The translations under genes were made by a program, and so were the position numbers. The notes beneath the pieces are model-generated. The model saw only the letters and a program-made list of their open reading frames with translations. It did no database searches and was not told the origin of the DNA. Source: Eledone cirrhosa (taxonomy: Eukaryota). From it: a stretch of DNA of 64,000 nt. Below are positions 44,138 through 45,313 of the stretch, one piece after another (the first letter of the stretch is position 1; each line of letters begins with the position of its first letter). The stretch is taken from positions 442,556,001-442,620,000 of the forward strand of contig OZ024740.1 of assembly GCA_964016885.1 (NCBI GenBank). Reading direction: 5' to 3'.

Positions 44138-44286
44138 CATATATATATATATATATATATATATATATATATATATATATATATATATATATATATATAT
44201 ATATATATATATATATATATATATATATATATATAAAAGACGTAAAATAAGAAAATTATAAAAATTAACTTACTTACTAAAGTTTC

Positions 44287-44369
44287 ACTCCAACTAATTA
44301 GTTTCTGAAAGGGAATAAACATGGTTTCCGAATGGAAAGCATGGAGAAAACCTTTCGTCATCAGGAAGT
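44287..44369 (-). ncRNA. Type I hammerhead ribozyme motif with extended stem II
   Basis: Minus strand ACTTC-CTGATGA-C-GAAAGG-[CATG-C-TTTCC-ATTC-GGAAA-C-CATG]-CCTTTC-A-GAA-ACTAATTAGT-T-GGAGT; stem III is a perfect 10-nt palindrome. Confidence 0.72.
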
Positions 44370-44924
44370 CTGTTCTCAGCTAAGTTACCAGGCGATGCGT
44401 GGATACAGGGAACTTATACAAAAATAATTCAGTGGATGGAAAAAAGCAAGCGTGGACTAAATTCCAAGACATTGAAAAAATCACTGCCTACTTGGTCGGT
44501 GGCAAATTCAAAAGAATCAATCACGTGACATCGAGGTTAATCAGTGAGGAGTGGGTGTTAAAAAGACAGTGGCTGAGCCATTACTATGAACTATAGTAGC
44601 AGTTTTGGCAAATTTTTGCTCAACAAAATAATTTGGAGATAATTATAAAGAATTAGTATATCTACCAACATATATATACAGATGCATACCTATGCTAGCA
44701 AATATATAGGGTTTGTCTTAGTAACTTTGTGGTTCAATGCAAGGGGATGCAGAACAATTATATGACAGACGTAAAATAAGAAAATTATAAAAATTAACTT
44801 ACTTACGCAGTGATTTTTTCAATGTCTTGGAATTTAGTCCACGCTTGCTTTTTTCCATCCACTGAATTATTTTTGTATAAGTTCCCTGTGTCCACGCATC
44901 GCCTGGTAACTTAGCTGAGAGCAG

Positions 44925-45006
44925 ACTTCCTGATGACGAAAGGTTTCTCCATGCTTTCCATTCAGAAACCATGTTTATTCCCTTTCAGAAACTAATTAGT
45001 TGGAGT
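44925..45006 (+). ncRNA. Type I hammerhead ribozyme motif (inverted copy of 44287-44369)
   Basis: Same architecture on the + strand. Confidence 0.72.
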
Positions 45007-45313
45007 GAAACTTTAGTAAGTAAGTTAATTTTTATAATTTTCTTATTTTACGTCTTTCATATAATTGTTCTGCATCCCCTTGCATTGAACCACAAAGTTA
45101 CTAAGACAAAACCTATATATTTGCTAGCATAGGTATGTATCTGTATATATATGTTGGTAGATATACTAATTCTTTATATACAGTATATATATATATATAT
45201 ATATATATATATATATATATATATATATATATATATATATATATATATATATATATATATATATATATATATGAGTAAGTATGTTTTGAAACAGTGAGCG
45301 AATTTGAAATCAG

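Follow-up and report, generated by a model that had tools for sequence, protein, structure and literature searches.

Insertions of Penelope-like elements (PLEs) are marked by partial tandems, a copy that is inverted and 5'-truncated, in some cases a tail, and a bias towards microsatellites, and nearly all families of the Hydra clade insert in (TA)n; non-autonomous PLEs have already been noted as well (PMC8557442, in the sections consulted). Head-to-head inverted pseudo-LTRs (pLTRs) have been described, together with integration in trans for which pLTR sequences suffice (PMC3846280, sections consulted). A lizard PLE protein nicks and extends both strands of AT-rich DNA in vitro; it starts inside its RNA at two sites, and cleavage by the ribozyme is unnecessary (PMC11167929, sections consulted). 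For animal retrozymes, a 2020 paper proposes that PLE enzymes acting on circular RNA account for their movement (PMC7229834), and a preprint, in a sample of 31 vertebrates, three insects and one anthozoan, weighs local tandem amplification of PLE ends against hijacking of PLE enzymes (bioRxiv 10.64898/2026.07.22.740005); for both sources we again refer to the portions consulted.

Here we describe an insertion in a window of 64,000 nucleotides (the whole stretch of DNA that was analysed). All unit positions below refer to U, a 529-nt sequence obtained as the reverse complement of positions 44238-44766. With a probability of roughly 0.7, we interpret the locus as a head-to-head insertion into (TA)n, consisting of two arms truncated at their 5' ends, of a multi-copy non-coding unit of ~530 nt that bears a predicted hammerhead; it was likely made in trans by the RT and GIY-YIG endonuclease of a PLE, probably one of the Hydra clade.

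The insertion shares features with several of these systems, as far as the consulted parts of the sources describe them. Non-autonomous Chlamys elements such as MRC1 (PMC8557442) and trans-mobilized pLTR units (PMC3846280) are alike in having no ORF, a partial tandem, PLE-type insertion and multiple copies; the U family is set apart by its animal host, its predicted hammerhead and the 115 nt that separate its two 3' ends. Hydra-clade PLEs share with U the (TA)n target and hammerheads with a short stem I, extra letters at stem II, a palindromic stem III and GUU, whereas U has no RT or endonuclease and carries a long branched extension of stem II; the link to this clade is drawn from style alone. 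In Penelope-1_SK, stem I and the letters that follow are similar to those of U by eye and the cut also lies 62 nt from the end; the hammerhead listed for Hydra-1_oBim is unlike that of U. Animal non-LTR retrozymes resemble U (35% GC) as short, non-coding, well-folded units with one predicted type I hammerhead, the size of U falls within their 51-972 bp range (bioRxiv 10.64898/2026.07.22.740005), and PLE dependence is proposed for both. In contrast to their head-to-tail arrays, U is here dispersed and inserted head-to-head, as 1.09 + 0.70 units; it is larger than the 170-400 nt retrozyme circles (PMC7229834), and its predicted hammerhead is PLE-type where theirs is canonical. Retrozymes are recognized by at least two complete hammerhead units in direct tandem; this locus, with 1.09 units in direct order, falls short of that, and short contigs could hide arrays elsewhere. 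The lizard element PAc (Poseidon, Anolis; PMC11167929) has two internal sites downstream of its hammerhead near a stem-loop, an AT-rich target, extension of both strands and no need for ribozyme cleavage, as we read for U, but it is autonomous and its two sites lie 30-40 nt apart, against 115 nt in the non-autonomous U.

Anatomy of the insertion and its surroundings

Features are listed in Table 1. On the minus strand, arm 1 (44806 to 44230) reads U490-529, U1-529 and U1-8, 577 nt or 1.09 units. The original prediction had reported a 529-nt period with a 40-bp direct repeat; the repeat is confirmed and slightly longer, with 46 of 48 nt identical (44230-44277 versus 44759-44806). We rejected the idea that it is a PLE tail; it is instead the overlap remaining after 5' truncation. 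On the plus strand, arm 2 (44807-45178; 372 nt, 0.70 units) reads U280-529 and then U1-123, so that, just as had been claimed, the reverse complement of 44238-44487 runs directly into that of 44644-44766. Both arms cross the end-to-start junction, which therefore occurs in both orientations, also as predicted. The ribozyme sense of both arms points outward, so that it is their 5' ends that meet at the joint. At their 3' ends both abut (TA)n, and the long tracts predicted on either side are indeed there; five other letters separate the end of arm 2 from the right tract (read from 45184). A target-site duplication is not readable inside the (TA)n. The arms differ at seven of their 373 common positions.

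Table 1. Features of the insertion and its (TA)n flanks, in window positions
Feature	Positions	Strand	Remarks
(TA)n target microsatellite, left	44139-44235	.	
Arm 1	44230-44806	-	3' end merges into (TA)n at 44230-44237
Full period U	44238-44766	-	529 nt, non-coding
Predicted type I hammerhead, arm 1	44287-44369	-	core from 44364, predicted cut after 44292
Long stem-loop U61-110	44657-44706	-	between the two family 3' ends
Head-to-head joint of the arms	44804-44807	.	microhomology of at most 2 nt
Arm 2, 5'-truncated inverted copy	44807-45178	+	
Predicted type I hammerhead, arm 2	44925-45006	+	core starts at 44930; cut after 45001 (GUU), predicted
Second stem-loop copy	45116-45165	+	close to the long 3' end
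(TA)n target microsatellite, right	about 45175-45272	.	

The expectation that the unit has no meaningful ORF holds as well. In circularized U the longest stop-to-stop frames are 72 codons (sense) and 70 codons (antisense). An ORF for RT or endonuclease is absent, as is the Hydra-type single ORF (RT, CxCX5C linker, C-terminal GIY-YIG), and a tblastn comparison with eight PLE proteins gave no match (best E 0.32). The antisense frame found none of 71 candidates at E<=1 in a weak search that covered longer proteins only. Since it lacks an ORF, U is not an autonomous PLE. Within the 64-kb window U has no similarity elsewhere.

Each arm contains one predicted type I hammerhead-like motif, in agreement with the claim of one ribozyme per unit. 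Stem I is 5 bp long, the 6-bp stem II bears a branched extension, stem III is palindromic and the triplet is GUU; around stem II, an extra C follows the first core box and an extra A precedes the second. A descriptor written after the motif had been seen matched one of 5000 dinucleotide shuffles of U. Rfam returned no hits at the gathering score and no hammerhead among 30 rows at E<=10, and in the minimum-energy fold of the monomer stem II is formed and the active hammerhead core is not. The predicted motif resembles in style what is normal for PLE hammerheads: among the 25 Hydra families that we counted in the consulted part of PMC8557442 File S2, 15 leave a letter unpaired on each side of stem II and 10 are cut after GUU, and PLE-X1_cBra is listed there with the same C/A core. 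U as a whole is well folded. The circularized unit folds at -114.5 kcal/mol (58% paired) against -89.5 +/- 5.2 for 40 shuffles, and the linear fold has a z of -4.58, with none of 100 shuffles equally good; the tail region alone reaches z -3.9, so the folding signal is partly local.

The truncated 5' end of arm 1 starts exactly at a splice-donor-like hexamer (44801-44806, minus strand), 14 nt past the predicted ribozyme cut, which may be chance. Introns near the hammerhead are frequent in PLEs.

The window also holds other elements. A decayed PLE with frameshifts lies at 47388-49268 (minus strand), 2.2 kb from the insertion. Its RT is 31-46% identical to eight database proteins, it has a CxCX5C linker and, at its C terminus, a GIY-YIG-type region, as Hydra-clade elements do, and an apparent decayed hammerhead is seen near 47350-47410; it has no DNA similarity to U. 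Its proximity indicates that Hydra-type enzymes were present in this lineage. Four hammerhead-like motifs unrelated to U occur at 45843-45892 (minus), 31966-31999 (minus), ~31750-31790 (plus) and 30572-30606 (plus); one of them has a (TA)n run ~55 nt away, and the motif at 31999 has the same style of unpaired letters around stem II. These four are likely 3' stumps of other PLE families. Flanking the insertion are two related palindromic hairpin elements in opposite orientation (43955-44138 and 45488-45635; 75% column identity), each adjoining TA repeats, with a third hairpin at ~45312-45475; these hairpins probably belong to another small mobile family. Farther away are a 23-bp satellite with more than 1000 copies and an extreme strand skew and a 32-bp satellite with ~80 copies (1-25381 and 33893-36540). 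An open frame of 239 codons at 56406-57125 (minus strand) has seven relatives at 43-72% identity and, judging by a motif, may be the restriction-like endonuclease end of a non-LTR retrotransposon. Pfam named none of three nearby frames convincingly, with one weak hit below the cut-off.

A multi-copy family with two recurrent 3' ends

Eleven of 14 public runs contain part of the stretch, and three contain at least half of its words; none of the 14 is recorded as RNA, which says nothing about expression. Reads and contigs were placed at 80% likeness for X1, X4 and X12 (organism A) and for X5 (organism B); the family counts leave out runs X2, X3, X6-X11, X13 and X14. We placed 3418 contigs from X1, 65 from X4, 55 from X5 and 7745 reads from X12, and all 30 bins of the stretch were covered in each of the four runs. 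The summed depth in X1 rises to 700,000, compared with ~9 for single-joint contigs, and the family is therefore high-copy. We rejected depth as a copy number, which it is not in itself; a rough estimate would be thousands of copies. The locus could have proved single-copy, contrary to the original prediction, and it did not: the ~530-nt period is a property of a family that is multi-copy in at least two organisms. A metagenome scan with the full motif gave no matches, and one with a shorter motif gave 20, none of them related to U (best blastn match 17 nt, E 0.30). Two variants bear on the unit itself. Both arms have G at 44372, where A makes up 61869 of the 65823 X1 depth; the shared G fits a single source lineage for both arms. 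In stem I of the predicted hammerhead, a U.G pair is replaced by C-G in 20257 of 42932 of the X1 depth (44366).

The end points were taken from the 24 of 413 loose ends that were listed, and the family may have further ones. Among these, ends in which a TA run precedes 44759 came from 24 contigs in X1 and one in X4, those before 44644 from one contig each in X4 and X5, and one before 44649 from a single X4 contig; X12 has an AT-rich end at 44651 (351 reads) with low agreement (0.34), and X4 has one A-run end at 44260. Position 44759 is 44230 + 529, that is, the end of arm 1, and 44644 is the end of arm 2. Because these outer ends recur in other copies, both ends of the insertion are ends of the family. 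They follow the predicted cut at distances of 62 and 177 nt, with 115 nt between them. Published PLE tails are 30-40 nt. From cut site to consensus end we computed 29-152 nt for 23 of 25 Hydra families in the consulted list (leaving out Penelope-18_HMa, listed at the 5' end, and Penelope-2_NV, at ~350 nt), and the long end of U, at 177 nt, is beyond this range.

The recurrence at 44759 and at 44644-44651 among the listed ends led us to reject a random permutation of ends around a circle, which the original prediction had entertained; the same two places end other copies, in the manner of PLE priming sites. The long stem-loop between them is likely under selection, judging from compensatory changes in one variant: a 391-read X12 consensus before 44692 keeps the stem, in which two pairs have both partners altered and several have one (by eye).

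Explanations of the insertion

We propose that a source locus holding more than a single unit would be transcribed and that a PLE protein would bind the RNA near the stem-loop downstream of the ribozyme. This protein would nick both strands of a (TA)n tract, and reverse transcription would begin within the RNA, either 62 or 177 nt past the cut; these two sites would be fixed, one for each strand. Both cDNAs (577 and 372 nt) would pass the intact ribozyme site and would then join at their truncated ends. The mechanisms given in the consulted sections of PMC8557442, PMC3846280 and PMC11167929 account for every feature of the insertion. The PLE hallmarks of a partial tandem, a head-to-head inverted copy, defined 3' ends and a tail, here of 115 nt, are all present, as are the Hydra-clade traits of insertion in (TA)n and a hammerhead, in this case predicted, near the 3' end. 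Our best reading is accordingly a non-autonomous, PLE-dependent element that is retrozyme-like. An autonomous partner was not found: U had no match in the 64-kb window, nor did three short motifs in the consulted part of the Craig 2021 supplement.

The original prediction explained the inverted arm by template switching. It is a 5'-truncated inverted copy of the sort usual for PLEs, and a second priming event is a better reading of it than a switch made by one polymerase. L1-type twin priming was rejected, as the arms overlap and each starts at a family 3' end. Other inverted joints in X1, at 44274/44463 and 44299/44763 (depth 8.6, orientation not given), suggest that such joints are made afresh at each insertion; the 12 joints listed do not include the one of this locus, 44806/44487.

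What kind of RNA served as template is a further question. Since both arms cross the cut and the length of arm 1 exceeds one unit, the template cannot have been a cleaved linear monomer, and by logic something longer is required. The claim of copying for more than one round from a circle thus stands as to the rounds (1.09 units, with both arms crossing the cut) and does not as to the circle, which is not needed: the same footprint would come from a linear multimer left uncut or half-cut by its ribozyme, and this fits as well. Within our main model we lean towards the linear multimer, with the circle the less favored of the two.

A circular template would make the family a true animal retrozyme, a sub-case of our best explanation in which tandem arrays give a ~530-nt circle through cleavage and ligation by the hammerhead and a PLE RT copies it for more than one turn from fixed priming points. 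Overall we consider this unlikely, and equally tentative is the idea of a ~530-nt hammerhead circRNA family that returns to the genome when Penelope-type target-primed reverse transcription starts at two fixed sites on the circle. It would explain why arm 1 is 1.09 units long and both arms cross an intact cut site, and it suits a unit that folds so well both as a circle and in linear form, although the signal of the tail region shows this to be partly local. Retrozyme circRNAs occur in coral, mussel and axolotl (PMC7229834), and circular templates have been proposed for PLEs (PMC4209133), according to the consulted parts of both papers. However, the locus has no pair of hammerheads in direct tandem, and no full dimer is among the run records listed. 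The predicted hammerhead is PLE-type with a palindromic stem III, and metazoan PLE hammerheads have low activity in vitro, cleaving poorly and as dimers (PMC4209133, sections consulted). Eight of nine frog retrozyme dimers did not cleave (bioRxiv 10.64898/2026.07.22.740005), and uncut RNA is the main substrate of the lizard PLE (PMC11167929), again in the portions consulted. Arm 1 ends 14 nt before the next cut, a weak hint, from one event, of a linear template whose 5' end was made by the ribozyme.

A second possibility is that the arms are ordinary 5'-truncated pseudo-LTR pieces derived from a longer PLE with coding capacity, and that a chance partial tandem of two truncated copies produced the 529-nt period. 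We regard this as improbable. In coding PLEs it is normal to find partial tandems as well as truncated copies in inverse orientation (PMC8557442, sections consulted), the window holds further hammerhead-bearing stumps, and the X1 depth falls beyond 44644 from 255093 to 133954 and then to 5762 at 44561-44579, remaining lower across 44561-44636. Yet under this explanation the 44643/44644 link would be private to the locus, and it recurs in a ~14% diverged X4 relative: record 10, which spans 44356-44697 with 48 differences and 16 gaps, bridges 44644 by 31 or more letters on each side, the one piece to do so by the 31-letter rule among the 24 of 3573 pieces listed. Colinear joints across the link (44530->44626, 44536->44629 and 44546->44626) are found in X1, X4, X5 and X12, that is, in two organisms. 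In X1, record 8 runs across 44766/44767 and a single contig steps back 528 nt. Near 44644, none of the 24 loose ends listed enters unrelated long sequence, and by eye homology persists in those at 44545-44546 and 44626. Nor does U have any similarity to the eight PLE proteins, and its 70-codon antisense frame had no hit in the weak search described above. A span of the whole unit is in none of the records listed, and closure is by tiling. The recurrence of the link in relatives means that these are not merely end pieces of a coding element, and the proviso of the original prediction, that copies might always be colinear pieces of a longer coding PLE, is answered by diverged relatives that tile around the whole unit.

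That the inverted structure is a fold-back chimera of a genuine repeat, from assembly or library, is very improbable: its joint is missing from the 12 listed and PLE-type loci are known to trouble assemblies (PMC8557442, sections consulted), but at three of the seven arm differences (44404, 44711 and 44766) arm 2 has the family majority letter, so that the arms are not mirror copies of one molecule, they finish at two distinct family-level ends, and comparable inverted joints exist elsewhere.

Standing and meaning of the family

The original prediction spoke of a possibly undescribed retrozyme-like family. Retrozyme-like is apt, and the U family is not described in the literature that we found on Penelope-like, non-autonomous and hammerhead elements in molluscs and cephalopods, although it may be catalogued in Repbase or Dfam; the class itself has been described already. 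U is thus a new family of a known class, that of non-autonomous PLEs and animal retrozymes, and the gain is a good test case rather than a new kind of element. Marks of PLE integration on a closed non-coding unit favor mobilization in trans. Given the high copy number, the spread of 5' truncations relative to the cut could separate a circle from a linear multimer computationally. If the circle is true, the insertion would be a direct genomic footprint of retrozymes mobilized in trans by PLE enzymes, which has so far only been proposed.
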